Shown piece after piece: positions 2,229-64,000 of a stretch of 64,000 bases of DNA (position 1 is the stretch's first letter; each line of letters starts with the position of its first letter). The translations under genes were made by a program, and so were the position numbers. The notes under the pieces were generated by a model. It worked only from the letters and a program-made list of their open reading frames with translations, was not told the origin of the DNA and made no database searches. This DNA comes from Peribolospora baueri (taxonomy: Eukaryota): NCBI GenBank assembly GCA_029717555.1, contig JAMDHS010000011.1, forward strand, positions 186,001-250,000, written 5' to 3'.

Positions 2229-5200
2229 TCACGAGCTTCGTTCGCCGAGCGTCACACGCAGGCGCGCGAATGTGTCTTCGGGAAGCACAGTGCCCAGCCG
2301 CGCCGTTCTGTCTTCGAGCAGCGCTTTAGAAGCGCCGGTCACCGCGTCCTGCAGCGACGTGACTCGCTCCCCCACTCGTCTGTAACGGACGAGATCGCGC
2401 ATGACCTCTGGGGGAATGGAAGAGGATGCAAAAAGAGCCCTGGCCATGTCCGCCCACTTGCGTTTTACAGCTTCGTCGGGCGAGGCGCCGGTATTCCTGC
2501 CCTCTCCGCCGACGTCGGCCGCCGTGTTCCATAGGTTCGACGCCAAGTGATGCGCGGCGATCCAGTACAGGAACGGTGTCCTGTCCCTCTGCACCTGGTC
2601 CTTCGCCAGAGCGCCGGCGTACGCTGCCAAGAGCGCCCGATCCGTCTCGACCGGCCAGAAGAATGCCGTCAGCCCGTCGCTGCTTTCTAGTGGCACATCT
2701 TCCGGTCGGGCGTGGATCGTCGACAGCAGGTGCGCATAATCGATCCAGAGCAGACGGCGATAGTCGGGAGCATAAGACATGGAAAGCGGCGGAAGGAGGA
2801 GCCTGGCGAAGGAAGGGTCAGAGAAGGAGACGGCGTCGTAGAGTCCCACAAAGTCCGTGTAGAACTGGTAGAAAGGCACCACGATATCGGCGCTCGCCGC
2901 TTCCTCCACTGTCGAGGGAATTCCCTCTGCAGTGGAAGGTGAGACGAGGTACAGCCCGTGAGCTGGAGACTCGAGAGTAAGCCGGTTCAACAGGTTGGTG
3001 AGAGAGTGAGCCACGTCCTCGTCCCTGAACACCTCGACCGAAGATCCGGATGCGGAAACGGACTGCTGTTGGCCGTGCTCGAGCATGAACACCTTCATAA
3101 TGTCGAAGATCAGACGAGACGACGAGGGCATGGCGCGCAGTCGTGTTCCACCCTGCTGTTCGAGAATGTCGAGGAAAAGAATCGCCAATCGGAGACAGGC
3201 AGAGACGACATCGAGCTCCGTCCAATCCCAGTCATCGGGCAGACACTGGAAGACCTCGGACGTAGCCGAGGACAGGAGTTCGTCCAATGGAGCGAACATC
3301 CAGTCCGTTCGCAAAGGAAGAATCTCCTGCCTGACGACCTTATCTTGCATCTTGGTCGCCACGGCAGTGGGGGTCACGAGCGTCGTCGTGACCGGCAGAT
3401 CGGCGGGTTGAGGATGGAGCGGGCCTTGCTTGATGCTTGGTAGTCCACGCTTGTCGGCGTCGAGCAGGTATCCGTAAAATGGCCGCAGAGCTTTGACTTT
3501 CGGACCCGCTTCCGAGGTGGCAGCATCCAGCGAGCGTTCCAGCAGCGTCTTGGCGGTTTCGACGTCAACTGGTCTGAGAACACTGAGCGCTCGCAGGGCG
3601 TGAGCGATCGTCGCCGGTGCGGCAATGTCACCTCTGACGGCAGACATGCTCACGACCGAGACAAAATCGGAGACGTTGTCGAGGAGCCGCACAAGTCCTC
3701 TCCGTCGACCCTCTGCCGCACTGGCGACATCCCACAGGTCCGCGTTCAGCAGAGCGTTCGCCGCGGCGATGGCCTTCGACACGACGTCGACGTTCGAAGC
3801 GGCAGACGCCATGCGCGTACAGGCAGCAAGGAATTGGACGTCGTCAACGATATCAAGCAGTCGTTGCGATGCACTTGTTCCCGCCTGTTTTGAAAGAGCC
3901 GTGACGGCGTCACAAGCCATGACGATGGCTTTTCGAGTCAAACCTTTTTCTGACAGGCCGTCGTTCCATGACTTTAAAACACCTTCGCGCTGCGCAGCGC
4001 CCGCCATTGGCTTTTTCGCGGCGCTGCCCTGCAACCAGACACTCAGATGCGTCAACGCGGAGGTTTGCAAAGACAGGAGTTGACGCCTGAGCATGACCGA
4101 GCTCCGGTCGGTGGAGGCGGCGGCGTCGGAGACGACGTCGGCCGAAAGCATGGTCGACATCGAGATGGCCGCGTGCACGGCGTGACTAACTTCCGACCAG
4201 GTGTCCAATTGCGACCACACGACGTCATGATCCGTATCGAGCATGTGGGGATCGAGGGCACCCGTGGTCCAAATTGTTAACAAATCCAGATAGGCGGAAG
4301 CCAGTCCGAGGTCAGGTCTGGAGACTTTTGGTGCCTCGGCCGTTGACTCGGTCTTCGGCTCTGAGGCGAAGCGGGACGTCGTCTCGACCACTCGCCGACC
4401 GATGGCCTCCCAGCACGTCCACGCCCTCCCGACGACGGAGGCGTACATGCCATACCTCGCCAAAGCGTCGTACATGCGCAAGGTCTCTTCGAGCAACTCC
4501 GTACCGAGACGGCGAAGCTCGACGTCTGTTCCCGCGCTCCAGGGCGGAACAACGACGAACCGGAGGAGCGTGTCAACCATGCCGGAAGCCACGAGTTTGG
4601 CGGCAATATCTCTCGAAGAGTCGGCGAGAAGCCTCAAAAGACGCAGCGCCGAGGTCCGAGCCGCCGCCGCTGCCGCCGGACTGAGCCCGGTTCGAGATCC
4701 AAGTGCCGAAGGTGCTTCGGGCGACGGCGGCCACGGTCGAGCGAGGAATGCAGTATGAACGGCGTCTAGTACGTCTTGCGCCTCGAAAACTTGCCGAGCC
4801 GCATCTCTCGAGTGCATGGCGATGCGGCACAAGATGGCGACGGCTTGGGCGGCAGTGACGTCGTTGAGCGCTGCAAATACCGCGAAACGTTTGCCGAAGG
4901 CGTGAATAAGATCCGTCCTGAGAAGTCCGTGGACGAGGTCCTTGCGGCAGGCGACCAAGTGCGAGTCGTCTTCTTTGAACGCCGGGGGAGATGACAACAG
5001 TTCCGCGCCTTCCACCACCACTTCCTCGTCATAACGCACCAGGGAGACGTAGAGCGTATCTATCGCTTGCGCTGCAACCGTCTCGTTCCTGTCTTCGAGG
5101 TTCCATCGAGCTATCAAAGCGACGTTGAGACGAACCTCCTTGTCTTCCACCTCCTTCCGGACAGCCACGCGTCGAGCATCGTCCTCTGCTAGCCCCGCAA

Positions 5201-6806
5201 GGACGTCCGCATCTCGCGGCACACCGGAGGCTTCGAACCGTCCGTACTTGTCCAGCACACGAGCGAGGATGCCGAGAGCCAACGCGCGCTGGGACGGTAC
5301 TGTGCTTCGGGAGAGATGCAAAAGCTCGTCGACGGTGTAGCCCGCTTCGTCCGGCCTCTCGCCGTGATGATGGAGGCCGCGATGGACGGGAATGGATGCG
5401 GATTCGGCCGATGAAAGGGCTGTGCCGGAGAAGTCGAAGCGAACGGCGGAGGCGGCGGATTGGTCGCTGGACGGAGCCGCGGAGGTCATCCATTCCATCT
5501 GGGCAGGATCATAAGTTGCGGAAGGGAAGAATCGTTGGCGGATATCTTCAGGCGTTCCTTCTTCGTACGGCCTCAAAGCGTCCGACGTCAAGGGAGCACT
5601 TTCAAGCGCTGACGTGGGCTGAGCTTCTTCCGAACTTGGGGGGATGACCTCCACATCGTCCGCAAACCGCGCTCGCCGCGCTTGAGGGCCGACGCCGCTC
5701 GACAGAGCTGAAGACGCGCCCCCATGCTCCACCTTTTCCTTCATCGGGGACGCTCCTGCCTGGCCCGTGCCCGTCTGTTGCGTGCTGCTTTCCTCAGTGA
5801 GGGGTGGCTGGTCGACGAGCGCACTCGACTTCCTGGCCGCTCTCTGCCGGAGCATTTCAACGATATCCGGGCTAAACATGCTCTCGATGTCTCGTTGCTC
5901 CGCCTCGATCTCCGCCTGCGACATGGCCGCCACTCGTGCATCGTTCTCCGTAGAGATCTGAGAAATCAGTGATCGACTGTCAGGTTCGACTTGCGGTATT
6001 TGGGGAGGCGCTACCGAGGGTATCGGGGTCGCGAGTGGGGGCGTGGACGCCGACGGTGCCTGTGACACGGTAGACGACGTAGATCCTCCGCTCGCCGTGA
6101 GTCTGGAGCGTTTGAATGCGCTCATTGCGGCCTGCGAACCCGGCGCCGCAGCGCTACCCTGGTCCGACTGTCGACGAGTCACGGCAGGAAAACCGCTAAC
6201 CGGCGCGACACGGCCCAAAGGCACGAGGGTCGACGGGTCGGGACGAGCTGGCTCTCGCATCAGAACCGCGTCCGGGTCAATCTGAGCGGCGGGGTGAGAA
6301 GTGCGGCGCTCGACCACCGAGCCAACGAAAGATGGCGTCCCTGCTTTTCTCAGCTGGGCGTCAAGGGCGACGGAACGGCCTGAGCTGTCGCCTTGTTCAT
6401 GAGCGCCATCGTCACTTAGCTCATCACCTCCAAGGTCAAGCTGAAAACGGTGACCCCCCTGACCGTCCCCCTCAGATGTCAGAAATGATCCAAGCCTTTC
6501 TGTCCGAGGGGCGACGCCTGCGGCTTGCCTCTGTTCCTGCCGCTGCTGGGCGAAACGAGACTTGGGGCGGGTCGAGGGTGCCTGTTCGGGCGGCTGTCTT
6601 GAAGCAGACGACCTTGGAGAGCAAGATGAACGGTTGTCAGCTTCGGAGGCACGTTTAACGATCGGTGGACCGCCCTGTGAAACCTGAGCCGCTGGGGGCC
6701 AATTGACGAACCCGCCCTGCTCATCCTCGTCAAACTCCTGAAGATCCACTAGCCTAGGGCGCAGCTGCTGAGACCTGGAAGACGAGGGGCCTCTTCCAGT
6801 CGCCAT
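2229..6806 (-). CDS. RBA50: RNA polymerase II assembly factor Rba50/RPAP1
   Basis: Apparently intronless ORF of ~1525 aa, first ATG at 6806. It has the RPAP1_N motif ISTENDARVAAMSQAEIEAEQ and the RPAP1_C motif RFDFSG...LHHHGERPDEAGYTVDELLHLSRSTVPSQRALAL, plus C-terminal FYTDFVGLYDAVSFSD. Confidence 0.92.
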   Translation of the reverse strand: MATGRGPSSSRSQQLRPRLVDLQEFDEDEQGGFVNWPPAAQVSQGGPPIVKRASEADNRSSCSPRSSASRQPPEQAPSTRPKSRFAQQRQEQRQAAGVAPRTERLGSFLTSEGDGQGGHRFQLDLGGDELSDDGAHEQGDSSGRSVALDAQLRKAGTPSFVGSVVERRTSHPAAQIDPDAVLMREPARPDPSTLVPLGRVAPVSGFPAVTRRQSDQGSAAAPGSQAAMSAFKRSRLTASGGSTSSTVSQAPSASTPPLATPIPSVAPPQIPQVEPDSRSLISQISTENDARVAAMSQAEIEAEQRDIESMFSPDIVEMLRQRAARKSSALVDQPPLTEESSTQQTGTGQAGASPMKEKVEHGGASSALSSGVGPQARRARFADDVEVIPPSSEEAQPTSALESAPLTSDALRPYEEGTPEDIRQRFFPSATYDPAQMEWMTSAAPSSDQSAASAVRFDFSGTALSSAESASIPVHRGLHHHGERPDEAGYTVDELLHLSRSTVPSQRALALGILARVLDKYGRFEASGVPRDADVLAGLAEDDARRVAVRKEVEDKEVRLNVALIARWNLEDRNETVAAQAIDTLYVSLVRYDEEVVVEGAELLSSPPAFKEDDSHLVACRKDLVHGLLRTDLIHAFGKRFAVFAALNDVTAAQAVAILCRIAMHSRDAARQVFEAQDVLDAVHTAFLARPWPPSPEAPSALGSRTGLSPAAAAAARTSALRLLRLLADSSRDIAAKLVASGMVDTLLRFVVVPPWSAGTDVELRRLGTELLEETLRMYDALARYGMYASVVGRAWTCWEAIGRRVVETTSRFASEPKTESTAEAPKVSRPDLGLASAYLDLLTIWTTGALDPHMLDTDHDVVWSQLDTWSEVSHAVHAAISMSTMLSADVVSDAAASTDRSSVMLRRQLLSLQTSALTHLSVWLQGSAAKKPMAGAAQREGVLKSWNDGLSEKGLTRKAIVMACDAVTALSKQAGTSASQRLLDIVDDVQFLAACTRMASAASNVDVVSKAIAAANALLNADLWDVASAAEGRRRGLVRLLDNVSDFVSVVSMSAVRGDIAAPATIAHALRALSVLRPVDVETAKTLLERSLDAATSEAGPKVKALRPFYGYLLDADKRGLPSIKQGPLHPQPADLPVTTTLVTPTAVATKMQDKVVRQEILPLRTDWMFAPLDELLSSATSEVFQCLPDDWDWTELDVVSACLRLAILFLDILEQQGGTRLRAMPSSSRLIFDIMKVFMLEHGQQQSVSASGSSVEVFRDEDVAHSLTNLLNRLTLESPAHGLYLVSPSTAEGIPSTVEEAASADIVVPFYQFYTDFVGLYDAVSFSDPSFARLLLPPLSMSYAPDYRRLLWIDYAHLLSTIHARPEDVPLESSDGLTAFFWPVETDRALLAAYAGALAKDQVQRDRTPFLYWIAAHHLASNLWNTAADVGGEGRNTGASPDEAVKRKWADMARALFASSSIPPEVMRDLVRYRRVGERVTSLQDAVTGASKALLEDRTARLGTVLPEDTFARLRVTLGERSS

Positions 6807-8617
6807 GATCGCAGACGAAGGTGAAGAAACTGGCGAGGTGGTCCCGCCGATCACTCGTCGTCATTTTACGAAGAGGGTAGGTAGGGTTATCGGAGAGGTG
6901 ATCGGGTCTACTCTTCCCTCTGCTCCTACGTTCCTACCCTGCTCCTATCATCTTTTATCTTTTACAATCCAACGCTTCGGGAGCCCATCCCACGTTTCTC
7001 CAACGCTTCGCGCGCTCATCCCGTCACCCGACCCGCGCTGATGACCTATACCGACCCCTCCTTCGGTATCAGGCGACCCCCTTCGCGCGCTTCCACAACT
7101 CTTTTTCCTCCCTCTATGAATTGAACCTCCCTCCCCCGTAAGGTCCGCTTTTCCATTTCGGCATGACGAGGCGGCCATGGACACTGCGCGGGCGGAAATG
7201 TTGGAAAGCGGCCTGCGCTGGCGTCGGTCCGACGACCGAGTTCGACCTCAACAAGGCACACGGCCGGTGCAAGTGAAAAGCGAGGAAAACCCTTTGGCCA
7301 GCCTGGTCAAAGGAGCCATGTATCGGCTCTCGGGCGCTGCGCTGCCAGTCGATCGAGCGCTGTCAGGTTCGGGTCCAGCGCGACGATGCTCAGGGCCAGC
7401 CCATCTGGGCGTCCGCGCCGTTAGCCCCGTCCTCATCACTGTATCGTCACTGTATTTGTACCCTATGAGTTTGCTACTCCTCTTTTTTATTATTATTTTT
7501 TATTTGGACGTCGTCCCCCTGCGTCGCCCCGAATGAAGAGGTTGATCGAAGAGGCGACGGGCAGGATATGAGACGGGGGCATGGGAAGGGGCGGGAGATA
7601 GTAGCAAGGACTGCGTGCGGAGAGGAGGGAAGAGCGAGCCAGAGGAGCGTGAGCTAGCTGCCTGAGAGCGCCTGTTGTCTGTCTGCCGTCCGGCCTGGCT
7701 GGACGGTCGCTTACGGAGGGCGCAGGTGTCGTGAGTGTGCGCCCGCCCGCCCTGCCATTGTGAGGGGCGGCGGATACAAGGCGCGAGGTGACCACGACGG
7801 CTGATCATCAGACTCGGATCGACAGAGCAGCCCTCGGCATGCGTTCGCTCTGCGCCGCATTGCAGGCACCGAGCTAGCCCGCCCTTGAATCACGCAGGGA
7901 CTTGCAGGCTAAGCGAGAGCACGCCGGACGCCAGGGCAAAGGCGATGATCGCACATTGCGGAATTTTGATGGCGGCGTCGGCGGCCCTGCCCTGCCCTGG
8001 CTTAGCGCTTCCTGTGTCAAGCAAGGCGGCGCAAGCGGACTACGCCTGCTTATGTAATCCGAGTAGGGCACAGCCGCGGCTGGGAGGGCGCTGCGCTAGT
8101 CGGTGGCGCCTCATGCAGCATGCAGTATAGCCCCAGCTCTGAGCGGGAGGCGAAGCACGGTGACCGAAGGCGATGGCGGCCAAGGCGGTGTCAAGCTGAG
8201 ACTGAGACGGGGACGGAGACGGAGACCAAGACCAAGACGACTACTGACCCGCACTTCCGCCCATCCGTCAAAAGAAAGAAAGAAAGAAAAAAGAAAAGAA
8301 AAGAAAAAAAAAGCAGTGGTGCCGGCACAGGATATCACAGCACCACCGCCAGCCAATCGCACCCGCCTCCGAAGACTACACCGCCGCGTCCTAGATAGCC
8401 CACCCCTGCCAAAGATGAAAATACATATGCAGCCTCCCCGTCCACCCGGCCTTCTCCCCCCTCTTCCCTCCCTCACTGCCTTCTCTCGCTCTGCTACAAA
8501 CAAGTCAATCCAAACCTCGTCTGTCCGACTCTCCCTACGTTCCGCTCATACATACACCCCATCACTCGCGCGCTTTCCTCGCTCCCTCTTAATATCTCTT
8601 TCGCCGCACGCTCGACA

Positions 8618-9452: not shown

Positions 9453-10396
9453 GGAGCGGAGCGGAGCGAGGTCAAGTGAGGGGGAGAGGACGGATGGATA
9501 GACGGGAGAGGGATGGATGGAGGATGGGGTTCGGTGGATGGACCGTGGCGAGCGTCTCCTTCGTGGTGATCATACAAGCACCTATGATGGAATCCAAAGA
9601 CAGCCCTCGCACCTCGCATTTGTTGGTTGGTTACAAACCGCCACACAGAAGAGGTCATCATGGGACAACAACAAGGCCGGGCGCGTCGGGAGCGCCGGTT
9701 CTGGTCCGACTAGGAACGGAACGTGCGGTCGCGCTAGCGATCAACGCCCATCGTTGGACCTGATCGCCGCCGGAGGCGTACGAAGACGTTCGATCTTTCC
9801 ACCAGTCTACGTTGCCTCCCATCTGTTCTGTTCTGCTAGGCAAGGTACCGCCCCTCTAGAGCCACGTACATATGCACGATGCATGTGCCCGTGGCGAAAC
9901 CGTGCGAAACCGTGGCACGATGCGTTAGATAACGAGCCTGTTTTGGGAACGCTCCTCGTCGCTGGAGAAGAGGCTGCTGAGCGAGCCGTCTTCGCGTCCA
10001 TACATAGGTGGCTCGGGGGAGGGACAGACAGACAGAGATGACATGAAATGGGCGTAAAATCGCGTGCGACTTTGAGACTGCCATTGCGAAGGCGAGATAG
10101 ATGACCGTGAATCACCGGTTGATGATTGATTGGTTGATTAATCAGTTTAAAGTCTATACGTACAGGCCGTTATCGACCTACGGGGCACCGGTAGACGGTT
10201 GCTAGGCGTATCGGATGGGAACGCAGGTGTTGTGTCCCGCTGGGGGGGGGGGCAAGTCTTGACTGGGCGTAGGAGGAGGCCGCATCGGTGACGGCGCACC
10301 GGAGCTTGGGGGCGAGCCTGTGGAACCTCCTGGGTGAAGTCGATCGGCCCAGATTTCTCCGTGTCGCTGTGGGGCTCGTGAAGCGCGGCGTAGTTG

Positions 10397-10622
10397 GCCG
10401 TGTATCGCTTGCTGTTCTCGAACCGACGGGCGTCCAGTATCTCATCCCAACCTGAGCACTCCGCGTCCGCGCCCAATATCGCCAGAGACTTTTGCGGTGG
10501 GAGACCGCTTGGAGTGGCGAGAGTGATGCCAACGGCTACATCAGTTGGGTCACCCGGGTCGTCAAGATTTGAAGTTCAAGTCAAACCGCCCGTCGGTTCG
10601 AGGACCGCAAGCGATACGCGGC
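10397..10622. repeat. Inverted repeat pair C (36 bp arms, 3 mismatches)
   Basis: 10397-10432 is the reverse complement of 10587-10622 (cgcccgtcggttcgag[a/g]ac[a/c]gcaagcgatac[a/g]cggc). Confidence 0.9.
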
Positions 10623-10640
10623 GACGGCAAGCCGGTTCGG

Positions 10641-10795
10641 CGGTTCGTCAATGCTATCGGTGCTGCGCCCTTGACCACACGGCCGTCCACTGTACAGCCA
10701 CCCCTCGCTGCGCTCGCGGAGAAAGGCTCGGGGGGTAGCTGTGCAGCGGACGGCCGTGTGGTCAAGGGCGCAGCACCGATAGCATCGACGAACCG
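10641..10795. repeat. Inverted repeat pair D (~67 bp arms, ~21 nt loop) over the zinc-knuckle coding segment
   Basis: 10641-10707 pairs with 10729-10795 with 5 mismatches. Both strands encode CYRCCALDHTAVxCTATPR. Confidence 0.95.
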
Positions 10796-11313
10796 ACAGC
10801 CTCGCCTTCTCCACCAGCTTGAGCTCGCATGCGACCGCGAGGCCGCGTTGGATCGCGCGGTTTGCAGTCTCCTTGTTGCCGAAGAGCACGATCAGGCTAG
10901 ACCTTGGGCGAGGATTAGGGTCGGTAGCGGGCGTCGGCACTGCCCATCGCGCCCTGATGATGTCTGCCCTCAAGAGGCCGTTGTCGGAGGCTAAGTCGCC
11001 CAGGCGCTCCTCGCTGCTGGGGACGAACGTCGTAGGCACTCCGTGGATGATGACGGGGTAGAGGCGAGATTTTAACCTCAGCCCATCGCTCAACGAGGGG
11101 ATCCAGGTCTGGTCGGTCGTCAGCTTGGCGGCGTCTTCCTCTTTGAGAAGGTGGATGACGATCTCCTTGGAGCGAGGTCGAACCCAGACCGCAGGGACTG
11201 GGATGTTTCGGCCGGCCCTAGAGGATTTTATCGCCGCTGAACTCTGTGCCTGAGTACCGCCGCGGCGAGGTCAGCTAGAACGGGTTTGTCGGGGTGGCGC
11301 TGCGCGAGGACGA

Positions 11314-11666
11314 TCGAGGCCGAGGCTGGTGCCGTACGCGGGGAGGTGGATGTCGTGGTGGTAGTGTATAGGGAGTGCCCACTCCTGGCCGCGTCAGCGT
11401 AGGACCGTCTGGCGGTGCGAAATGACGCTCCTCAAGCTTGAAAATCTGGGCAATAAAATGAACCAGGTCCAGGATGAGGAGTTCGCGCCGGAGCCGTCGT
11501 CTTCCGCCGGGGCCGCTATCTCTTCCTGCACACGAGCCTCGGTGCTGAAGATGGTGTCCTGGACCTGGTTCATTTTATTGTCAAGATTCTCAAGCTTGAG
11601 GAGCGTCATCTCGCGCGGCCAGGAGTGGGCACACGACATTGCGTACGGCACCAGCTTCGGCCTCGA
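11314..11666. repeat. Nested inverted repeats A and B forming a long bulged hairpin
   Basis: 11417-11474 pairs with 11557-11614 (58 bp, 4 mismatches). 11314-11339, 11350-11356 and 11375-11393 pair in order with 11614-11666. Confidence 0.93.
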
Positions 11667-14220
11667 CAAGAGCGAGTTGAGGTCGGAGAAGAACGAAGCG
11701 TCGGCGGTCGTTTTCCTGCTAACGGCCTTCTTGGCCTTGGCCAAGAGCGGTTGGACAATCTGGACTGCGGCTAGGGTAAGCAAGCCAATGTCGTTCGGGC
11801 CCTTCACGATCTGGCGCACTCTGGTGCTGGGGGGTCTGATGCACGATGAAAGGGGTAGAAGTAGGAGCGGGCGTGGGGGTCACATTGCGTGCGACGCGTG
11901 CTCGCGACGTTGTTACCGTGGTTCTGGTGGGCGCCCCGGGCGGAGGTCCAGGGCGGGGCGCCGGGGTGGCCTTGGGGGGGATCCAGATGAGGTATGGGAA
12001 GCGTCAGAGGTGGATGGAGATAAAAAAGACGACTCGAGCTTATGGTGAGGTTCAAGATGATGGTGGTCGTCCCGTGAATCACGGAGGCCACTTCTGCCCG
12101 CGGAACGTGCCGCAGCCAGGTCCGATGTCTGTCCGGGCGGCCGCCGCTGAATCGTCACGTACATGGACTCTCCCATGACCGTCACGTCTGACGGCCGCAA
12201 CCTGGAGATGCAGAACCGAGGGTCGGTCAGGCCTCGATTGCTTTACTTCCACGTTCAAGTCTCAGTGGCTCGCCAGCTCTCTCGAGTCTCGGTGTCGAGA
12301 GACCTCAGCGCCTCGATGGCCTGCATTCTGTCGCGCTCCCGAAGCAAGACCGTCCTGGATCTGCCGAATGATCGGTCTGGCAAGCTGCGCACAGTAAGAT
12401 AGATTGTCAGCCTCCCTGGTTGGTACAATTCGAGTTGGATAACCGAGCTGTTTAGCGGAAGCGCACCGAGACGCGGAAAGAGCGCCCTGCGAAGAAGAGG
12501 GAGAGGAGGCCTTTTATCCTAACACGCCCGGCACAACTGCGCTTTCTTGGACGATGGTGGCCTCCGACATTGGGGCTCGAAGAAAGGCGCGGCGCGTCCG
12601 CGTCGTCCTCCAGAGCAGGGAAGGAAGGAGTGGAGAATGCAGACATAGCCTGGGACAGAGTCGAGAAGGGCTTGTTATCCTGACTGCGCAGCTCCTTGAT
12701 CATCTTCTTACGGCCTGGAATGGTCACTGGCGGCGAGGCAGACAGACAGACAGACGACGAGCGTGGCCAGAGTGTTCGGAGCCCCGACCGAGCCGAGTAC
12801 TACTCCATCCATCCTCTGGGCACCGGTCGGTCAGTCGCTGCTGAACGGGGGGCGGTGCATATGCACCACCACCACGACGGACACGACTTATCGATCGCCG
12901 TTGGCCATATGATCCGGACATGGGCGACAGTCGCACAAGTGAGACATGGACGTATCGGGCGGACACCGATGACGACGCGTCTTCGTCGCGTTTCTCTCAT
13001 GCGCCTAAATATCACGTGCGAAAGTCGCGGGCCACACCTCGTTCGGCGTCGTGCTGCCGGACGGGCCGCGCAAGCGTCGGCCCGCGGGGGACGGGGCAGA
13101 GAGGCCACTTAGGCCCGGCTGGAGACTCCGCGATGCCTGGCACGTCGGCGCCGGACGGGTGGGCCGAGGGTTGCGCGGCCCGCAAGGGACGGCGGCGGCC
13201 ACGGAGGGGTGAAACGTTTCTAGAAGCCAAGCCGATATAGGCAGATGCAGTCCATGTACGCACACATGAGTTTTGAGAAAAGAAAACAAGAAAGGAAAAG
13301 AAGAAAATGAAAAGCAAGGCCTTTCTCGCCGTCGGTCGGAAGCGGCGTCCGCTGACTGGCGGCCACGTAATCGGCCGGCACGGAGGAAATGGCCGGGATG
13401 GACGGTCCGTCTGTGCCGCAGCAAGTGACACAGACCCGTTTGTCTTCGGGCCGTGGAAGAAAGAAATGCGTGTGGCAGGCAAACGCACGACCCGCCTTCC
13501 TCGTCCGTGGCACGTTGTCGTTGTCGTGGTCGTTGTCGTCGTGGTCGTCGAGAAAGGAACACTGAACACGCTGCCCCAAGCGGGGCGGAACGCTCTTGGA
13601 AATACGGAGATGGATGGACGTGCGCGTCGTGTCCTGGCCGGCAGATAGGCCAACAGACACGCGGACTCGCACGCCGGACGGAGGCAGGCAGGCAGGTACG
13701 TCGACCCCGTGCTAGCCAGTGACGCCGAATTCGCCGTCCGGATACGTAATCCGATCACCACCAAGATAATCTGTCTGATCCACTCGCTCCTGTCCTCGGA
13801 GGCTCGACCCGATGCATTGTTCCGGAATCGCGATCTGCCTGAGCTGACGACGGGACGACGTGAGGGAGCACTTACTTATGGAGCTTCGCGGCTCATCCGT
13901 CCTACCCCCCATCCCCATCCTCCCCCCTCCTCCAATCCTCCGCCCTGCCTTTGCGTAGCTTCTTCACGGGCGGCCTTCCACGTCTCCCACAGGCTCTTCT
14001 TCTCTCTCCTCTGTCCTCGCAGCTGGCGTCGTCCAACCCTCGGAGAGCCGTGTCGTCGCTGTTGCACGCCGCTCGCGCTCGCACAGACGCACAGGCCTTG
14101 GCCCGTTCGTCCTGCCCGGCTCCGCTTAAATTGGGCGTTGTCGCACTTTTTTGCTCCGAGCGCAACGCGTAGATCTCCTCACCGGCTTCGCCTCTCCTCG
14201 CCTTGTCTCTTCCCACCGCC

Positions 14221-17200
14221 ATGTCCACGCCCGCACCCTACTTCGCCGCCGCTCCCTCTCCGAACGAAGAGGGAGACGTCGAGCATGTCTCCGAGCCTGG
14301 CGTCGCTCACGCTGCCCAAGCGCGCCCCGAGGACGCGCCGTTGGGCCCCAGCCTCAGTAGGAAGATCAGCATTCCTGTGGACCACTTCGATCCCGAAGGT
14401 GAGCCAAGCTTTACGGCCTTGTGCGTGCCACGCCGTCTATCCAACATTCATCACCCTTCCTTTCGACCACCTGACTCGCAGGCACCGACTCGCTCCGACG
14501 TACCCTCTCCAAAGAATCCTACCAACGCCGCATGTCCGCCTCCGGACGTCGGCCGTCCGTGTCCACCGTCGACCGAGCCCGTTCCAAGTCCATTGGCGAG
14601 CCCGGCATCAAGGAACGCCCCGAGACGGCCGATTCCGCCGGTCCTTCTTCCTCCGATGATCACAACAGCAGCAGCAAGTTCGATCTCGAGGACTTCCTCA
14701 GTCAGGTCATGACTAGGGGACGCGAGGCCGGTAAGAAGAGCAGGGAGATGGGCGTTTGGTTCCAAGATTTGTCCGTCTCCGTGAGTGCCCGTCGCCCGAC
14801 ACCAACTTTTCGACGCCGGCGGGATGCACTGATTGAACTCGCATTTCGTCTTTCTCTATATCCTCCCTCAGGGCGTCGGCGCAGGCGTTTCCCTCTCCTC
14901 CAACGTCCTGTCCACCCTTTTGACGCCCTTCGACGCTTCCCTATACCGCCGCGCGCCCATCAAGAACATCCTCACCGGCTTCACCGGCACCATCCGCCCC
15001 GGAGAGATGGTCCTCGTCCTCGGTCGTCCCGGCGCCGGTTGCACATCCTTTCTCAAGACGCTCGCTAGCTATCGCGATGGGTTCAGGAGCGTCGACGGGC
15101 AGATCGGCTACGGGCCGATCGGCGTGAGGGAGGTGCAGAAGAAGTTGCGCGCCGAGGTCGCATACCTCCCCGAAGGTGGGTGTCGCGTGCGATTCACCAG
15201 AGACGCACTTGCACGTTTTCAGCCTTTTTCTCATGTCCCGGCCGTGACCGCTAACGAGGATCCTTTTCCGCCTTCTTTTCCGTTTTCTTCGTAGATGACA
15301 TCCACTTCCCGACCATGACCGTGTCCGAGACGCTGTCTTTCGCCGCCGCTGCCCGCGCGCCCGATTCCAAGGACTGCCTCGACGGCATGGGCCGCAAGGA
15401 GTTCACCAACACCTTGCGCGACGTTCTCATGACCGTCTTCGGCCTTCGTCACACTGCGCAGACAAAGGTGGGCAACGACTACATCCGCGGCGTTTCCGGC
15501 GGCGAGAGGAAGCGCGTCAGCGTCGCCGAGATCCTCGCCGTGCGGTCGAGGCTCATCTGCTTCGACAACTCGACCCGAGGCCTCGACGCTAGCACGGCCG
15601 TCGAGTTTGTCCGCGCACTTCGCATCGCGTCCGACTTGACGCGCAACGCGATCGCCGTGAGCATCTACCAAGCCGGCGAGCAGCTCTACAAGCTCTTCGA
15701 CAAGGTCGCCGTCATCAACCAGGGCCACTTGGTCTTCTACGGCCCCACCGATGCCGCGGTGACCTACTTCACCGAGATGGGCTTTCGGCCCCATGACCGC
15801 CAGACGACGGCCGACTTTCTTGTCTCCGTCACTGACCCCAAGGGACGGCTGATCCGCGAGGGCTACGAGTCTCACGTCCCGCGCACGCCCGCCGACATGG
15901 CCCGCCGCTTCGAAGAGTCCGAGGCGGGTCGACGGAACCGGGCGGAGGCGGTCGAGTACAGCAAGGAGAACGAGGGCAAGGAAGAGGAGATGGAGGCCGA
16001 GTACAAGCGTATGGCCCGCGCTGAGAAGAGCAGCGGTCAGCGCAAGGGGAGCGCCTACGTCCTCAGCTACCAGCGCCAGGTCGCCCTCTGTGTCCTCCGA
16101 CGCGCCCAGATCGTCAAGGGCGATATCGGCACCCACCTCACCCTCATCCTCGCCGCCACGTTCCAGGTGAGCCAGAGTCGCCCGCTTTCTGCTCGTCGAT
16201 GGATGCTCGGATCGGCGCACGCAAACGCCGTCGTACTGATTCTCCAATTTTGCGCGCCCCTCCACAGTCCATCATCCAAGGGTCCGTGTTTTACCAGATG
16301 CCCAAGAACACCTCCGGTTTCTTCAGTCGAGGCGGTGTCATCTTCTTCGCTCTCTTGTTCAACGCCTTCACCGCTGCCACCGAGATCAACGCCGGCTACT
16401 CGCAGAGGTGAGGTTTTGAGCTGTCACTGGACCGGGGCGTAGCGAGAACCGGAGTTGACCTGATCCCCTTCCGTTCGCTCCCCGGTAGGCCCATCGTCAT
16501 CCGTCACAAGCGCTTCGCCATGGTTCATCCGAGCGCCGACGCGTTGGCGAACACGCTCCTCGACATGCCGATGCGTTTCCTTAACGTCCTTTGTGAGACG
16601 GATCCCGCTCGGTCACTTTCTCTCATCGCGTCCCTCCTTGTCCCGTCGTGTCGTGCTAATTCGACCTTTTGTTTACTTACTTGCCGGGCCCCCGACAGTC
16701 TTTGACATCGTCCTCTACTTCATGAGCGGCATGCAGTATACCGCAGGACAGTTCTTCATCTTCTTGTGCTACACCCTCGTCGCTACCTACACCATGGTCA
16801 GCTTCTTCCGCGCCCTGGCCGCCTCGATGAAGGCGGAGAGCAGTGCGACGACGTTGGGAGGCCTGGCCGTCTTGGACCTCGCGACGTACGCCGGATACAT
16901 CATCCCGAAGAGGTCGATGCACCCATGGTTCAAGTGGCTCACCTACATCAACCCCATCAGCTGGGCCTTTGAGGCGCTCATGGCGAACGAGTTCAGGACG
17001 CTCAACGTTCCCTGTGCAATGTACGTTCCCTCGGGTCCGGGATACGAGCATGTGCCGCGGGAGAACCAGGTGTGTCCCATCGCCGGCGCCGTGCCCGGTC
17101 AGCCGCTCGTCAGCGGCGAGGCCTACATCAACACGAGCTTCGGATACTCGTGGTCGAACGCCGGGCGCAACGCTGGCATCATGATCGTGAGTTTCTGCAA

Positions 17201-19903
17201 TGGTTTTTTTTTATATTTTCTCTTTTCTTTTTAAACTCTTCCTTCTCGGTTCGTCGGAATTGAATTGTCCCGACCTTCGCCCCTCGTCTCTTCACAGGCG
17301 TTTTGGGTCTTCTTCATGGTCTGGTACTGGATCGCCAGCGAATGGCAAACTGACCCCAAGGCCAGCGGTGGTGTCATCGTCTTTCACCGGTCACGCGCTC
17401 CCAAGGTGGTCAAGGAGACCGCCAAGGGCGGACGGGGCTCCGACGAGGAGAAGACCATTGCTTCGGATGCGGACCCGATGGCCGTTGAGGAAACTTCGGC
17501 GCAGGACAAGGCAAATGCTACAAATGCTTTGAGCGCCAGCTCGGACGTCTTCTCCTGGGATAAAGTCAACTACGACGTCGTTGTCCAAGGGGGCAAGACG
17601 CGTCGGTTGCTCCAGGACGTCAAGTGAGTAGTGGCCGTTGCGTCATCTGTTCATCCAGGGCAGTCCTGAGCTACGCTAGGTTCTTTCTGACCTGATCATG
17701 CCACTATCTTGTCACGTTTTTTTTTAGGGGTTACGTCGCTCCAGGCAAGCTCACGGCCCTCATGGGCGAATCGGGTGCCGGCAAGACGACCCTGCTCAAC
17801 GTGCTCGCTCAACGTGTTAACATGGGCGTCGTCACGGGCGACATGCTCGTAAACGGGAGGCTCTTGCCCAAGTCCTTCCAAGCCTCTGTCGGTTATTGTC
17901 AGCAACAGGACGTTCACCTCAGCACCGCCACCGTTCGCGAGGCCCTCCAGTTCTCCGCCCTCCTCCGGCAGCCGGCGTCGACGCCGAAGCAGGAGAAGCT
18001 GGCTTACGTTGAGGATGTCATTAAGATGTTAGAGATGGAGCCTTTCGCGGAAGCCATGGTCGGCGAGGTCGGAGAGGGTCTTTCGGTGGAGCAGCGCAAG
18101 CTCTTGACCATCGGCGTGGAGCTCGCGGCCAAGCCGGAGCTCCTCCTCTTCCTTGACGAGCCCACGTCCGGCCTAGACTCGCAGTCCGCTTGGGCCATCG
18201 TCTCCATCCTCCGCAAGCTCGCCGATCACGGCCAGGCCATCTTGTGCACCATCCACCAGCCGTCCGGCGAGGTCTTCTCCGTGTTCGACAGGCTCCTCCT
18301 TCTACAGAAGGGTGGCAAGACGGTATACTTTGGTGACATTGGCAAGAACGCCTCCCAACTCGTCGACTACTTCCAGACGCGGTCCGGACAGATCTGCAGG
18401 GATGAAGACAACCCGGCAGAGTACATGCTCGACGTCATCGGCGCCGGCGCCACCGCCTCAACCAAGCACGACTGGCACGAGCTCTGGAAGCAGAGCGAGC
18501 TCAAAGAGCAGCTGGACAGGGACTTGGACGAGATTTATGCGAGCAAGAAAGAAGCAGCCACGGCTAACGATGAGCGTGCCGATCGGGAGTACGCCGCCAG
18601 TTTCACGCAGCAATTCGTCGTGGTTACGCACCGCGTCTTCACCTCTTACTGGCGCAACCCCGTGTACGTGCTGAGCAAGCTCGCGCTCAACGTGCTTGCA
18701 GGTCTCTTCATCGGCTTCTCCTTCTGGAAGCTCGGTCGCAGCATCAGCGATCTTCAGAACATGCTTTTCGCGTGTTTCATGAGCATCGTGCTCTCCACCT
18801 CGCTCTCTCAGCAGCTTCAGCCCATGCTAATCTCGCTGCGCGCCTTGTACGAGGTGCGCGAGCGCCCGAGCAAGATGTACAACTGGGTCGTCGCCACGCT
18901 CAGCTGGGCCCTGGTGGAGATTCCATGGAACCTCTTCGGAGGCACGTTGTTCTTCGTCTGTTGGTGTGAGTACCGCGTTTCCCTGCACGTCGTTTCCTCG
19001 ATGAATCCTGACGTCTCTCGCCGCTCGTATCTATTTCACTTTAGACTGGACGTGCGGTTTCCCGTTGGAGAGCGCAAGGGTTGGCTACCACTGGGGTTTC
19101 TACATGCTCTACGAAATTTACTTCGCCAGCTTCGCTCAGGCCATCGCAGTCGTCGCCGCCAATTCCATGATCGCCTCCATCCTGTTCAGCACCTTTTTCT
19201 CCTTCGTCATCGTCATGTGCGGTGTCGTTCAACCTCCGCCGCAGCTGCCCTACTTCTGGAGGAGTTGGATGTTTCCGTAAGTGGGCAGTTTCTGTGCCGG
19301 ATGCGCCTTCTGGGGCCACTTGATCTGACACCATTTGTATTTGATCTGCAGTCTGTCTCCCTTTACATATCTCATCGAAGGCTTCCTCGGCAACATCATC
19401 GGGGGCAAGCCGGTGAGCATGAGCATGGATGCCTCGGCTCTTGACGGTTCTTGCGCTGACGCCTCTTGGCTTCTTCGGCCTTCCTCTCGCAGATCGTTTG
19501 TAAACCGCAAGAATTCGCCTACATTACGCCTCCAGCTGGTCAGACATGCCAGCAGTACCTCGGCCCATTCGTTGAATTTGCCTCTGGCTACTTCCAAGAT
19601 GGCCCTAACGGTACCTGCGCTTACTGCCAGTATAAGGACGGCGACGAGTTCCTCGCAACTGTCGACATGTCCGCCAGCCACAAGTACCGGAACATCGGGA
19701 TCATCGTGGCGTACATTGCCTTCAACTTTTTCTTGCTCTTCTTCCTCATGTGGGCACTGCGTGTCCACAAGTGGAAGAAAGGTGAAAAGGTGGTACCGTC
19801 CAAGGCTGCTGCTATTCAGGTCGACGGTCCCGTCGGAGCGAAGCAGGAGTTGCCCGCACCGGGCGGCCTCGCCGTTACCCGGGACGCAGGGCACCTGGCC
19901 TGA
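14221..19903 (+). CDS. Full-size ABCG/PDR-type multidrug ABC transporter (Snq2/Pdr5 family), ~12 exons
   Basis: NBD1 has the degenerate Walker A GRPGAGCTS, the signature VSGGERKRVS and CFDNSTRGLD. NBD2 has GESGAGKTT, LSVEQRKLLTIGVELAAKP and FLDEPTSGLDSQ. TMD motifs include EALMANEF and YFWRSWM. Topology is NBD-TMD-NBD-TMD with GT-AG introns. Confidence 0.95.
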
Positions 19904-34838: not shown

Positions 34839-37800
34839 GGCGGCGGCGGCTGGTGGATCGGCGTCATGCCCATACCCGCAAGTCCCTTGGTGAATGGGCT
34901 GCGATGCTGAGAGGAGGCCGCCGCCGCCGCTGCCGTCGAGGCCTCGCCCGCGACGCCCGGGCTGGGGAGAGGGGGGGTGCCGGGACTGCTGGCGTTGCCG
35001 TCGGCGCCGCTGCCCGACGAACTCGGCCTCGAGCTGGCGCGAGACGCGCCGCGAAAGCCGGTGGCAGGGGACAGATGAGGCGATCCGGGCGGCGAGCTGG
35101 CGGCGCTGGCGGGCGCGGACCGACTCGAAGTGGAGTAGTATGGCTGGGCGCCAAAATATCCTCCGCTGGAGCTGTAAGGGTACGCGCTGCCTTCTCCGGG
35201 CGTGATCGGACCGGCCTGCGTGCTGGCGGCGCTGTTCGTGGTTGAATGAGTGAGCGCGGGAGGGGGCAGGTACCGCGGATGGGAGTGGTCGTGAGGGTGG
35301 GGCGCTTGGGCGCCGAGGCCGCCGTCGAGAATGTCTTCGATCCTGGTCCGCTTGCTCGCCATGCCGTCCGATGTCGCCGACGGGCCGTCACTCTGCTTCT
35401 TGCCGTCATCTCCGCTCGAGAGGTGATAAGCGCTGAGGCTGAGGTTGGGGCCGAGACCGCCGGAACCGCTGCTGGCTCTGCGAACGAGCTTGGGGGGACT
35501 CATGCTGTACGGCGTCGTTGTGCCGCTCTTGGTGCCGCTGCGGATCGGTCTGCCGGAGCTGCTAAACTCGGACATGGGCATGATCGTCGGGCTCGTCGCG
35601 TTCGTTGGCGTCGAGCCGCTCAGCTGGGACATGGAGCTAGAGGCGGACAGAAGCGGGTCGGCAGAGCCAGCGCCACGCTCGGCGCTGCGATGGTGGACAT
35701 GGCCGGAATGGTGATGATAGTGGTAGGGCGGGATGCCGTACGGCTGGGACCGATGACGATGGGAGCCGTGGTGGCCGTGGCCGAGGAGGTGGTTCGAGCC
35801 GTCGACGGACGGCGGCGAGGGCCGCTGTTCTCGGACCTGGGATGCATGGCCGTGTCGGAGGTGGGGCAGGTGGACGGGTGAGACGGGCCTGCTGGGCGCC
35901 GGGCTGGTGACGACGCTGTTGGGAGCCGTGTGGCTCGCGAATAGGCTGAGCGTGCGTAACGGGCCGAGGACGGGGCTGCTGCTCGGCGTCCACTGAGGAG
36001 GAGCGTGAGGGTCCGTGGGTGGGTGCCTGCCGTATGGGGCGCCAGGACCGTAAGAGTGGCCGGGCGGCGGGTAGTTGTAGGACAAGTGGCCGTCGCGAGT
36101 GGGGGGCTCGCCGTCGCTGGGATACTCGTCGCTGACGATGCTGCTGCTGGGGGAGAAGCGAGGGGAGTGTTCGGCCGAGCTGGGATACGCCGACGAAGGG
36201 TTGCTCGAGTACGGGTAGCTCGAAGCGAGGCTGGCGGGCACGCCGGGAGGGTGTGGGTAGGGGGCGTAGTGCTGACGGTGCATGCGGCTGTAGGTGTGAT
36301 GGGGACCGCCGGGGGCTGCGGCGGAGACATCGTGGGAATACCGGACCAGGTCGTCGTGGCTCTCGCTGCGATGGGATGGGCGATGGGCGGGCGGGTAAGG
36401 GGCGAGGTGAGCGCCGGGAGGGGCCCGACGCTGGAGTAGCGCATGAATCTTGCTGTTGTACTTGTGCATGCAGTCCTCGTGACCGCACGTCGGAGGCGTC
36501 GCCGAGCCGGCGAGCGCGTCCGGGGGCGGGACCATGTGGGCGTGGGGCGAGGTGGCGGGGGTGGAGTAGCCGGAGTGATAGCCCGGCGGCGGCGGGTAGA
36601 AGGGGGCGTGATGATAGGGGGCGCCAACATCGAGAGGGTGGTGACCGGGACGACCGAAGGCGTCAGGTGGGGTCGACCGCCTTGACCTGCCCTCCTTCTC
36701 GGCGCGCTCAAGCTCATACAGCTCGTCCGCGGCGGCCTTTGCGAGGGCGGACATCTCGCTGCGCGTCGCGGCGGCGTCCGGGTGAATCTCGTTTCGAGAG
36801 GCGTCGATGTCCTGGGAAGGAGAGAAGGGGGAGCGGTGGTGAGCATGCGCGGCAAGGACGAAATAGAGTTGCGACGCGGGACCATCTCCAGGCTGAATGC
36901 CGTCGACACGACGACGGAGGCCGGGAGGGACGGAAGGAAAGGAAGAGGAAGGGAAGGAAGAGGAAGGGAAGGAAGAGGAAGGGAAGGGCCGGAAGAGACA
37001 AGAGAGGAAATGTTGGAAATGGAAATGGAAATGGAAATGGAAATAAAATAAAGAAGCGACAGACGGCAGCGCGGCTAAACGAGCGCAACCAAAGCCTCGC
37101 CACCTGGCATCTCGTCACCGCGCCCGTGTCGACGCCGCGGCAAGGAGAGAGAGAAAAGAAAGAAAGGGGACAAGATCGGGCGAACCCCGCATCGGAGACG
37201 ACAGCCGCCTTTCTCCGCGCTGAGGGACCCCAGGAAAGACCCCAGAAATGCCGCGTCCTCGATTCCAGTCCAACATCGGCAGGAAGCGCAATGAAACTTG
37301 TCAAGAAAGACAAGGCAAGAAGAGCGGGAGGGCGAGAAAAGGAACCGAAACCGAGGGGACGGGAAACGAGTGGTGGCTGGTCGGACCGAAGCAAATCGAA
37401 TCGAAGAAAAAAAAGCGAAAACTCACCTCGTCATACTCGTGCTGCTGCTCGTGCTGTTGCTTCGTCTTGTGGTGACCACTCCCTCCGCCCGTCGTCGGTG
37501 TCGAGGACGACGACAGGGCCTGCTGAGCGCCTCCGCCCGCTCCTCCTCCGTCGCCGCCACCAGCGCCACCGCCGCCGCCGTGCTGCTGCTGCTGCTGCTG
37601 CTGATGCGCCGCCGCCCCGCGACCCTTCCTGGGGTTGCTGTGGATGCGCACGTGTCTCGTCAGCTCGTCAGACCTGCTGAACCGCTTGTCGCAGCCCGGG
37701 TGACTGCACACATGTGGCTTCTCGCCCGTGTGTGTGCGAATGTGGCGCGTCTGGTGCTCGAGCCGGTAGAAGGCGCGCGAGCACAGCGGACACTTGTATG

Positions 37801-37897
37801 GCCGCGGGATCTGCGACTTGTCGAGCGGCAGCAGGTCTGACGAGGTCAGATTGGGGTGCGACGGCGACGCGCCGTCATCGCTGGCCGGATGGGACAT
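34418..37897 (-). CDS. cre1: CreA/Mig1-type C2H2 carbon catabolite repressor (2 coding exons)
   Basis: [56 protein letters not shown] is the CreA/Mig1 finger pair. Intron 37426-36812 (GTGAGT..CAG) joins it in frame to the 34418..36754 ORF (SHTAPNS, LPP motifs). Confidence 0.88.
36931..37044. repeat. Intronic simple repeats: 15-mer (GGAAGAGGAAGGGAA)x3 and (GGAAAT)x5
   Basis: Directly visible at ~36941-36985 and ~37015-37044. Confidence 0.85.
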
Positions 37898-63865: not shown

Positions 63866-63897
<32 letters not shown>

Positions 63898-64000
63898 ATC
63901 CGGTGCGAACGACATGAGCTCGTGCACGGGGGGGGAGGACGCGGCCGAGTCGATCATCTTTACGCCCACTTCGGCTTCCCCCTCCCCTTCCCCTTCCCCT
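58762..64000 (-). CDS. Large Ser/Pro-rich low-complexity hypothetical protein (5' end probably outside window)
   Basis: Uninterrupted frame of more than 1735 codons, open to the window edge, with polyQ/polyG tracts. No domain recognised. Confidence 0.7.

Follow-up and report, generated by a model that had tools for sequence, protein, structure and literature searches.

The first open reading frame (ORF1) of type I long interspersed nuclear elements (LINEs) is described as an RNA recognition motif (RRM) directly upstream of CCHC knuckles, an arrangement reported for the I, Jockey, R1, Tad1, plant L1 and L2 clades (PMC4120745). Derivatives restricted to ORF1 are exemplified by HAL1, non-autonomous relatives of mammalian L1 that encode ORF1p and are described as amplified to many copies (PMC5753468). 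For maize Mu killer, a hairpin of ~4 kb that stems from a DNA transposon, transcription, small interfering RNAs (siRNAs) and heritable silencing are reported as demonstrated (PMC3440606), and snap-back of complementary DNA (cDNA), resulting in 5' junctions at which antisense element sequence is joined to the target, is documented for insertions of the R2 retroelement (PMC11371274). Here we analyze a 1,956-bp LINE insertion located in a 64,000-nt stretch of contig JAMDHS010000011.1 of Peribolospora baueri (positions 186,001 to 250,000; this whole stretch is referred to as the window). The insertion is an internally deleted copy in which ORF1 is the only coding region left, and it contains short stretches of its own sequence in inverted orientation. 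Positions 10116-12071 most probably represent an old, dead and decayed single LINE copy, the hairpins of which are scars of rearrangements.

To compare the locus with other copies, we used contigs from four sequencing runs of one study: runs X1 and X2 belong to organism A (0.93 and 0.92 of sampled words) and runs X3 and X4 to organism B (0.31 and 0.14). The insertion has an 11-bp direct repeat at either border (CCGTGAATCAC), regarded as a target-site duplication, and a defined 3' tail. The 3' end does not carry a poly(A) stretch but an 8-nt tandem repeat instead (GGTTGATT on the plus strand). Two organism A contigs leave the element exactly behind position 12071 and one organism B contig leaves it before position 10127, showing that the ends of the element are true family ends. 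The copy has retained the 5' end of the family, a broken ORF1 and the 3' tail with the short tandem repeat, and is devoid of the remainder of ORF1 and the entire ORF2 (several kilobases).

A preliminary description of the locus, made from the sequence alone, had reported a minus-strand ORF1-like frame with the motifs SYADAARSG and PVIIHGVPT and a CCHC knuckle. All of them are present in the minus-strand translations, and the homology on which that description had made its reading depend was clearly found. With the 229-codon minus-strand frame 10581-11270, 489 homologous proteins were obtained at E<=1e-3, 36 of them at E<=1e-10 and none at E<=1e-30 (best 2.8e-20). The best homologues are 30-37 % identical and align with query residues ~12-182, up to the knuckle; the matches stop near residue 180, where the first palindrome starts. 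The 150 proteins listed among the 489 homologues were used for tblastn searches, and the 84 of them with a length of 380-640 amino acids were used to build a profile of 491 positions. Of the 163 high-scoring segment pairs (HSPs) obtained with tblastn, 161 are located inside the element: the minus strand accounts for 149 of these, and 12 fall on the plus strand, over the inverted knuckle (10500-10700). The remaining two are weak matches outside the element (E 0.004 and 0.007). The profile matches the minus-strand frame 11431-11231 with its positions 134-196 (E 9e-7) and, collinear with this match, the minus-strand frame 11270-10584 with positions 198-366 (E 3e-52), while the inverted knuckle in the plus-strand frame 10394-10735 is matched by positions 344-369 (E 5e-7). 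Since the profile comprises 491 positions and the match stops at 366, the element lacks knuckles two and three as well as the C-terminus. Neither a homologue nor a family match was found for the 3' region (10147-10575, minus strand), and its collinear profile match to the ORF1 C-terminus has an E-value of 0.57, which is below significance. The profile match of the N-terminal frame 11394-11879 is likewise not significant (E 1.6).

Full-length homologues consist of a helical N-terminal part, a SYA-type motif, the core and three CCHC knuckles. An AlphaFold model of the core, based on an alignment of 64 sequences, has a predicted local distance difference test (pLDDT) value of 90.4 and contains two beta-alpha-beta-beta-alpha-beta units. 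The top Foldseek matches of this model are all RRM proteins, namely tandem RRM proteins (Prp24, 7.8e-4, and the RRM pairs of IMP3, HuR and PABP), and matches to single RRMs reach target-normalised TM values of 0.6-0.67. The knuckle has the form C-x2-C-x4-H-x4-C, and its residues C163, C166, H171 and C176 are almost invariant in the same alignment. As modelled, the ORF1 of the element falls under the type I LINE definition (RRM plus CCHC), with two RRM-like folds, the knuckle immediately behind them and three knuckles in the homologues. Unlike a complete type I ORF1, the copy in the window stops after the first knuckle, is frameshifted, lacks an ATG in the RRM frame and is known here without an ORF2.

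Pfam returned no family for this ORF1, nor for 23 of the 25 homologues scanned; a zf-CCHC match was obtained for the other two, one of which passes the cut-off. Searching the PDB by sequence with an ORF1 homologue returned only weak matches to nucleocapsid knuckles (E 0.13-0.77), word-indexed searches yielded neither named ORF1 relatives nor fused longer forms, and the plasmid collection contained no match to the element. Atlas cluster labels for the taxa of the homologues were Arthropoda and Basidiomycota (scores 0.91-0.93), which serves as a lead only.

The preliminary description had also regarded the locus as a LINE derivative that kept ORF1 and lost its reverse transcriptase (RT), and this view agrees with our data: the retained ORF1 is of the RRM plus CCHC type, and neither RT nor endonuclease (EN) was detected in any of the 29 frames of at least 40 amino acids that overlap the element. 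RT and EN were equally absent from the 75 ORFs of at least 200 amino acids in the window (73 outside and two inside the element) and from the 25 homologues scanned. The copy is dead. A frameshift near 11228-11270 separates the linker frame (11228-11431) from the RRM frame (10581-11270), straight read-through encounters eight stops, the RRM frame has no ATG, and ORF1 ends after the first knuckle. Like HAL1, the element has kept ORF1 sequence and both termini and is devoid of ORF2; unlike HAL1, it has a broken ORF1, an intact one was not found, and its particular structure was seen at one locus only.

Inverted repeats were identified by a repeat search and self-BLAST, resulting in five pairs. 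The two longest are 10641-10707/10729-10795 (67 nt, 93 % identity, 21 nt apart, 177 bits) and 11409-11474/11557-11622 (66 nt, 91 %, 82 nt apart, 120 bits), followed by 10397-10432/10587-10622 (36 nt, 92 %, 154 nt apart, 52.7 bits), 11314-11339/11641-11666 (26 nt, 96 %, 43.7 bits) and 11375-11393/11614-11632 (19 nt, 100 %, 35.6 bits). The spacers between the arms amount to 21, 82, 154, 220 and 301 nt; thus, the sequence that each block reverse-complements is no more than a few hundred bases away. When the element was shuffled 100 times with its dinucleotides preserved, the best inverted match had a maximum of 33.7 bits and a mean of 23.2 bits, so that all five real pairs score higher. The remaining ~62 kb of the window contain only a 32-nt palindrome, a 22-nt palindrome and one distant 36-nt pair. 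The scores above all shuffles and the scarcity elsewhere in the window show that the repeats are real, beyond chance and concentrated in the element. The two other local palindromes of the window are located at 2905-2936 (32 nt, 87.5 %) and 51627-51648 (22 nt, perfect).

According to the preliminary description the ORF is interrupted by four inverted copies of itself, captured independently of each other. The inverted copies were found, since all five pairs exceed the 100 shuffles, but their number and independence were not. Alignment of the arms showed that the right arm (11557-11666) repeats the left arm (11314-11474) in reverse complement, with 9, 18 and 24 nt missing. The pairs of 66, 26 and 19 nt therefore form one composite palindrome, and three hairpin units are present instead of four captures. 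Two of the proposed captures are halves of this nested palindrome, and the two others are direct neighbours at the breakpoint beyond which the rest of ORF1 and the whole of ORF2 are lost. The coordinates of the inverted knuckle also had to be corrected: a plus-strand copy is present as described, but spans 10641-10714 instead of 10641-10717 and is followed by ~14 nt of filler. Similarly, the stretch 10397-10432 does pair with 10587-10622, but the inverted arm may be the opposite one. The features of the locus are compiled in Table 1.

Table 1. Features of the LINE insertion and of the inverted blocks it contains (window coordinates).
Feature	Positions	Strand	Basis and remarks
Left target-site duplication copy	10105-10115	none	11-bp direct repeat CCGTGAATCAC, same letters as 12072-12082
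Whole insertion, ORF1-only internally deleted LINE copy, 1,956 bp	10116-12071	minus	Target-site duplication, contig divergence points, ORF1 homology
3' terminal short tandem repeat	10117-10139	minus	Three copies of 8-nt unit (GGTTGATT on plus strand)
Left arm of 36-nt repeat, hairpin unit 3	10397-10432	none assigned	Within the 3' region continuing into the tail
Spacer of unit 3 (154 nt)	10433-10586	none assigned	No family match
Right arm of 36-nt repeat, unit 3	10587-10622	none assigned	
Filler between two inverted blocks at ORF1 breakpoint (18 nt)	10623-10640	none assigned	
Inverted copy of first CCHC knuckle	10641-10714	plus	Profile E 5e-7, 12/163 tblastn HSPs
Centre/filler of hairpin unit 1 (~14 nt)	10715-10728	none assigned	
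Sense ORF1 core, two RRM-like domains and first CCHC knuckle	10729-11270	minus	Homology, profile positions 198-366 (E 3e-52), predicted structure; sense arm of unit 1 = 10729-10795
ORF1 linker with SYADAARSG	11228-11431	minus	Profile positions 134-196 (E 9e-7); frame differs from RRM core; 11314-11404 = sense part of left palindrome arm
Inverted insertion copying coiled-coil-like segment 11557-11622	11421-11477	plus	Absent in paralogue, frame count
Centre of nested palindrome, sense (79 nt)	11478-11556	minus	Collinear with paralogue (which covers 11478-11565)
Sense coiled-coil-like segment, inner right arm	11557-11622	minus	
Inverted copy of linker 11314-11393 minus 9, 18 and 24 nt	11623-11666	plus	Abuts 5' region; junction with 11667 also in organism B
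5' region, common to other family copies ending at same base	11667-12071	minus	Run contigs
Right target-site duplication copy	12072-12082	none	11-bp CCGTGAATCAC

The arms differ from each other by 4-9 % in addition to the three gaps. The outer arm parts show one difference in 45 nt and the inner part six in 66 nt, a difference that is not significant. The GC content is ~60 % throughout, and the arm differences are a mixture of transitions and transversions, observations that bear on mutation resembling repeat-induced point mutation (RIP). Neither of the two fillers (10715-10728 and 10623-10640) could be traced to a source sequence in the window. A sense transcript of the element was predicted to fold with stems of 69, 56, 32, 26 and 18 bp at the repeats (minimum free energy -865.6 kcal/mol over 1,956 nt), so the three stems of the preliminary description, here 69, 56 (+18 +26) and 32 bp, do appear in the predicted fold. 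Rfam microRNA families matched the hairpin 10641-10795 below the gathering threshold in all cases (mir-3937, 44.2 versus 84 bits; mir-9242, 41.1 versus 62; MIR9677, 38.1 versus 90); these are generic hairpin matches.

The structure of the locus was reproduced in the contigs of organism A. X1 contigs match the window without a difference at 9600-10549, 10526-10680, 10659-10777, 10880-11066, 11058-11178 and 11154-12600, and X2 contigs cover the same exact stretches except for 10659-10777 among the records listed. These stretches span the centre of the CCHC palindrome, both 36-nt arms, the whole nested palindrome and both borders of the insertion. Among the records listed no organism A contig covers 10778-10879; the letter-for-letter match extends over the rest. 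The exact reproduction of the junctions in two runs shows that the inversions are not assembly chimeras.

The preliminary description had proposed a mobile hairpin element or a structured parasite; the contigs do not bear this out. Contigs of 19,777 nt and 23,679 nt (23,680 nt in X2) extend from the unique flanks 434 and 918 nt into the element, and a second organism A contig at least 80 % alike over 10105-10508 or 11317-11720 was not found in X1 and X2 (contigs only; the filter may drop records). Many copies with the same internal structure were thus not encountered, and the structure of the element was seen at one locus per organism. Summed contig depth, which is not to be read as a copy number, equals the depth of the flanks over 10105-10508 and 11317-11720 (~90 in X1 and ~112 in X2) and exceeds it 2-5 times over 10509-11316 and 11721-12124; where short contigs span the CCHC palindrome, their depth is flank-like (80-83). 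With the same reservation on depth, these data suggest that a few extra copies exist of the ORF1 core and the 5' region and none of the nested-palindrome stretch and the left 36-nt arm.

Paralogues of the element made it possible to determine the unrearranged order for one of the blocks. An organism B contig of 8.1 kb, ~86-88 % alike and collinear with the window, skips the 57 nt 11421-11477 and has the five letters GACGC at this site. Counted by coordinates, the coiled-coil frame stays in register with the linker frame if five bases lie between them, but not if there are 57. Together, the paralogue gap and the frame count show that the normal order is coiled-coil segment, 79-nt stretch and SYA linker, as in the homologues, and that 11421-11477 is an inserted reverse complement of 11557-11622. 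It is the only one of the four inverted blocks that is seen as extra in comparison with unrearranged sequence. The paralogue is itself broken: it also skips 11169-11282 (114 nt of the ORF1 linker and RRM start, with five letters instead) and carries ~121 unaligned letters in place of 11566-11669. An intact family member was not found in any of the four runs.

The normal sequence after the first knuckle is given by loose ends of paralogues (before 10730 in organism A and behind 10704 in organism B). Translated by hand, this continuation reads R-C-A-R-C-A-S-S-S-H, the start of the second knuckle. The plus-strand copy of the knuckle carries the first ~9 nt of the family continuation (10706-10714), which the sense arm lacks.

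Strand switches were found in other family copies as well. In a 387-nt contig present in both organisms an antisense piece ending at 11204 is followed by the 5' region, which is entered at 12051 in A and at 12063 in B; the same contig subsequently skips from 11963 to 11295, with four letters interposed. An organism A contig, read by hand from its loose end, contains 10520-10562, four letters and then the reverse complement of ~10577-10548. The opposite-strand joints 10430/10588 and 10679/11758 were considered as additional inversions and discarded, since their short side is one arm of a window palindrome and can be read as a collinear contig on the other arm. A coding variant as the source of the gaps in the right arm (9, 18 and 24 nt, all multiples of three) was discarded too, because one gap removes conserved SYAD codons and one postdates the split of organisms A and B.

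The insertion is present at the same site in organism B, where a 3,756-nt contig spans the 3' border (9908-10180) and an 18.2-kb contig the 5' border (12024-12562). In addition, an organism B contig of 397 nt (~95 % alike) covers 11641-12037, so that the inverted linker copy is contiguous with the 5' region in it as in the window, and the nine loose letters that precede 11641 in this contig correspond to 11340-11348 in reverse complement. Organism B thus shares the junction of 11666 with 11667 and has kept 9 nt that are lost from the right arm in organism A. The palindrome is therefore older than the split of the two organisms, and its arms have since shed sequence. Substitutions between A and B amount to 3-6 % in the flanks and to 2.7-4.3 % in pieces of the element. 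The divergence of the element, no lower than that of the flanks, and the 4-9 % distance between the arms suggest at the sequence level that the stems show no sign of selection. The structure has probably been decaying neutrally since before the split, its potential to form double-stranded RNA (dsRNA) being a by-product. As to the flanks themselves, organism B shows an indel or replacement on the left at 9852-9908, with 66 different letters for 55 window bases, adjoining a 10-nt tandem repeat (9889-9914), and at 12562 organism B contigs carry 35 additional letters after 12561.

How the inverted blocks arose can be discussed on the basis of their geometry. The knuckle copy and 11421-11477 complement the sequence located just 5' on the sense strand, and the same applies to 10587-10622 and 11623-11666 on the other strand. 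We infer a fold-back (snap-back) process, in which a free 3' DNA end would fold back on its own strand, be extended by tens of bases and then be joined. The CCHC copy and the arm 10587-10622, each templated by a different side, would occupy the point of the large deletion; two ends, each snapped back before joining, would have left the knuckle copy, the 18-nt filler and 10587-10622 side by side where ORF1 breaks off. In the nested palindrome, 11421-11477 would have created an initial hairpin with 11478-11556 at its centre. By pairing with 11421-11477, a 3' end that stopped at 11622 could then have copied the linker outward, which would give 11623-11666. The lower divergence of the outer arm parts, albeit not significant, agrees with such an order in which the inner block came first.

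The enzyme may have been the RT of the LINE, switching from RNA to cDNA as template while this copy was being made by target-primed reverse transcription or immediately afterwards. We tentatively favour this origin of the blocks by the element's own reverse transcription, at somewhat less than even chances, because other family copies carry such joints, the surrounding 62 kb do not, and R2 snap-back provides a precedent. The blocks resemble the R2 cDNA snap-back products described in human cells (PMC11371274) and the 5' inversions of L1 attributed to twin priming (PMC2837659) in that antisense is joined to sense sequence and copied from nearby cDNA; one family paralogue even has its antisense-sense joint beside its 5' end, as in R2 snap-back. 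Unlike the products of both processes, the blocks in the window are internal, duplicated, bordered by collinear element sequence on both sides and four in number. They are also similar to template-switch mutations, in which a neighbouring sequence, in reverse complement, takes the place of a short stretch and a hairpin is thereby created or lengthened, and the nested palindrome resembles stepwise expansion of arms as described for such events (PMC13100816, PMC10710096). They deviate from these cases in having 36-76 nt, in being clustered in one transposon remnant and in that two of them lie at a kilobase-scale deletion breakpoint.

Several observations weigh against our interpretation of the locus. 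The X1 and X2 contigs and the window may derive from a single sample, so that these contigs are not independent support, and some records were filtered from the depth data, so that the description as a single copy draws mainly on the continuity of the contigs. No clear microhomology is evident at the switch points or arm ends, a possible 5-nt match having been seen by eye only. The ~9 extra nt of the inverted CCHC copy exclude a simple fold-back on the present sense arm and demand either later asymmetric loss at the centre of the palindrome or another template. Fold-back of the first strand would account for one half of the blocks and fold-back of the second strand for the other, hence one pass of a polymerase does not explain all of them. 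Moreover, internal inverted duplications with collinear flanks are a non-classical outcome of LINE insertion, since twin priming inverts without duplicating. The RT of the family was itself not encountered in the data.

Instead of the LINE RT, host DNA polymerases might have made the blocks after the insertion, by template switching in replication or by snap-back in end-joining repair, with a first hairpin provoking breaks and thereby outward growth. In its favour, two blocks, one from each side, and the 14- and 18-nt fillers lie exactly at the kilobase-scale deletion breakpoint. Template switching is described to homogenise and expand imperfect inverted-repeat arms in yeast (PMC13100816) and to create hairpins de novo (bioRxiv 10.1101/2023.04.19.537475 / PMC10710096). 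The less diverged outer arms, although not significantly so, would fit stepwise growth. However, ~62 kb of window sequence without a comparable inverted duplication, and several LINE-family copies with strand-switch joints, point to a process tied to the element, and reported template switches in replication are mostly shorter than blocks of 36-76 nt. We regard an origin by host polymerases as the main rival, less likely than the RT-linked one. The artefactual alternative, that the inversions are assembly chimeras, would be in line with the palindromic joins known as an artefact of some long-read and amplification protocols, but is hardly conceivable here: short-word contigs of two runs match every inspected junction with no difference and at flank-like depth, organism B carries the junction of 11666 with 11667, and the arms have diverged instead of being identical. 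The chimeras considered in the preliminary description are thereby close to being refuted.

Two further explanations would assign a role to the hairpins. In analogy to maize Mu killer, the locus could be a functional hairpin-RNA gene that is transcribed and diced into siRNAs silencing the LINE family in trans. The predicted stems in the sense transcript, which cover ORF1 sequence common to other family copies, and the retention of the locus in two related organisms are compatible with such a function, and Mu killer, a partial inverted duplication of a transposon gene, is reported to silence its family (PMC3440606). We nevertheless consider it improbable, because the arms differ by 4-9 % and by gaps of 9, 18 and 24 nt, the 9-nt loss in one arm postdates the split of A and B, and the element pieces have diverged as much as the flanks (2.7-4.3 % versus 3-6 %). 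Furthermore, two of the three stems cover sequence for which organism A has no other contig at least 80 % alike, leaving little to silence there. The RNA interference (RNAi) families Dicer, Argonaute and RdRP were not detected among the window ORFs scanned. A propagating non-autonomous family, in which the hairpins would be part of the transmitted template and for instance be recognised by proteins of the autonomous element, is more doubtful still. Both family termini and a clean target-site duplication have been kept, which would make the copy mobilisable as it is, and the 36-bp stem is situated in the 3' region, the part of the element in which recognition stem-loops occur in some LINEs. Amplifying ORF1-only LINE derivatives are known from HAL1 (PMC5753468). 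Yet the junction stretches are continuous with unique flanks and lack a second contig in either organism A run, the only other occurrence seen is that in organism B, where the site is identical, the block 11421-11477 is missing from the paralogue of normal order, and ORF1 is out of frame and truncated. A dead LINE copy with hairpins as rearrangement scars thus remains the reading that we prefer.

Read in this way, the locus would be a natural, well-preserved example of fold-back rearrangement in a fungal LINE remnant, with three hairpin units in 1.3 kb, one of which has apparently grown in two steps and the minimum age of which is set by a related organism. It would show that transposon debris can gain dsRNA-forming structure without selection, as raw material for hairpin-RNA or miRNA-like loci. 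The element resembles Mu killer only in that part of a transposon's coding sequence is duplicated in inverted orientation and could give a hairpin transcript; it differs in its short (19-67 nt), decaying arms and in that it is known here from sequence data only. Among the 12 top-ranked titles of a full-text search nothing similar was found for fungal non-LTR elements with inverted repeats forming hairpins or siRNAs, which is not a claim that they are absent from print. A bolder proposal, to which we give little credence, is that this LINE family habitually makes snap-back copies at retrotransposition, so that dead copies would be born with hairpins against their own ORF1 and the locus, retained in two related organisms, would be a standing dsRNA trigger by which the RNAi of the host would first recognise and then restrain the family. 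If true, LINE activity would have a built-in route to its own silencing, a LINE counterpart of Mu killer. Small RNAs from the arms or family-wide joints, if they existed, would tie snap-back by a LINE RT to natural hairpin formation; such snap-back has so far been documented mainly in engineered R2 systems.

The genes in the neighbourhood indicate that the locus is situated in a fungal nuclear genome, as judged from an RPAP1-like gene and a gene for a PDR/CDR-type ABC transporter. The former lies left of the insertion (2232-6860, minus strand) as a frame of 1,543 codons with the domains RPAP1_N, RPAP1_C and TPR_RPAP1. The transporter is encoded by three successive plus-strand frames with the domains ABC_tran, ABC2_membrane and PDR_CDR (15255-19441), presumably split by introns. 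The minus strand of the window additionally encodes a C2H2 zinc-finger protein (37304-38857), a Kelch-repeat protein of 1,159 codons (53616-57092) and a frame of 1,745 codons without a Pfam match (58765-63999). A hexanucleotide/nonanucleotide tandem repeat is located at 13513-13550 (CGTTGT x 6.3), encoding poly-Val and poly-Thr in overlapping frames.

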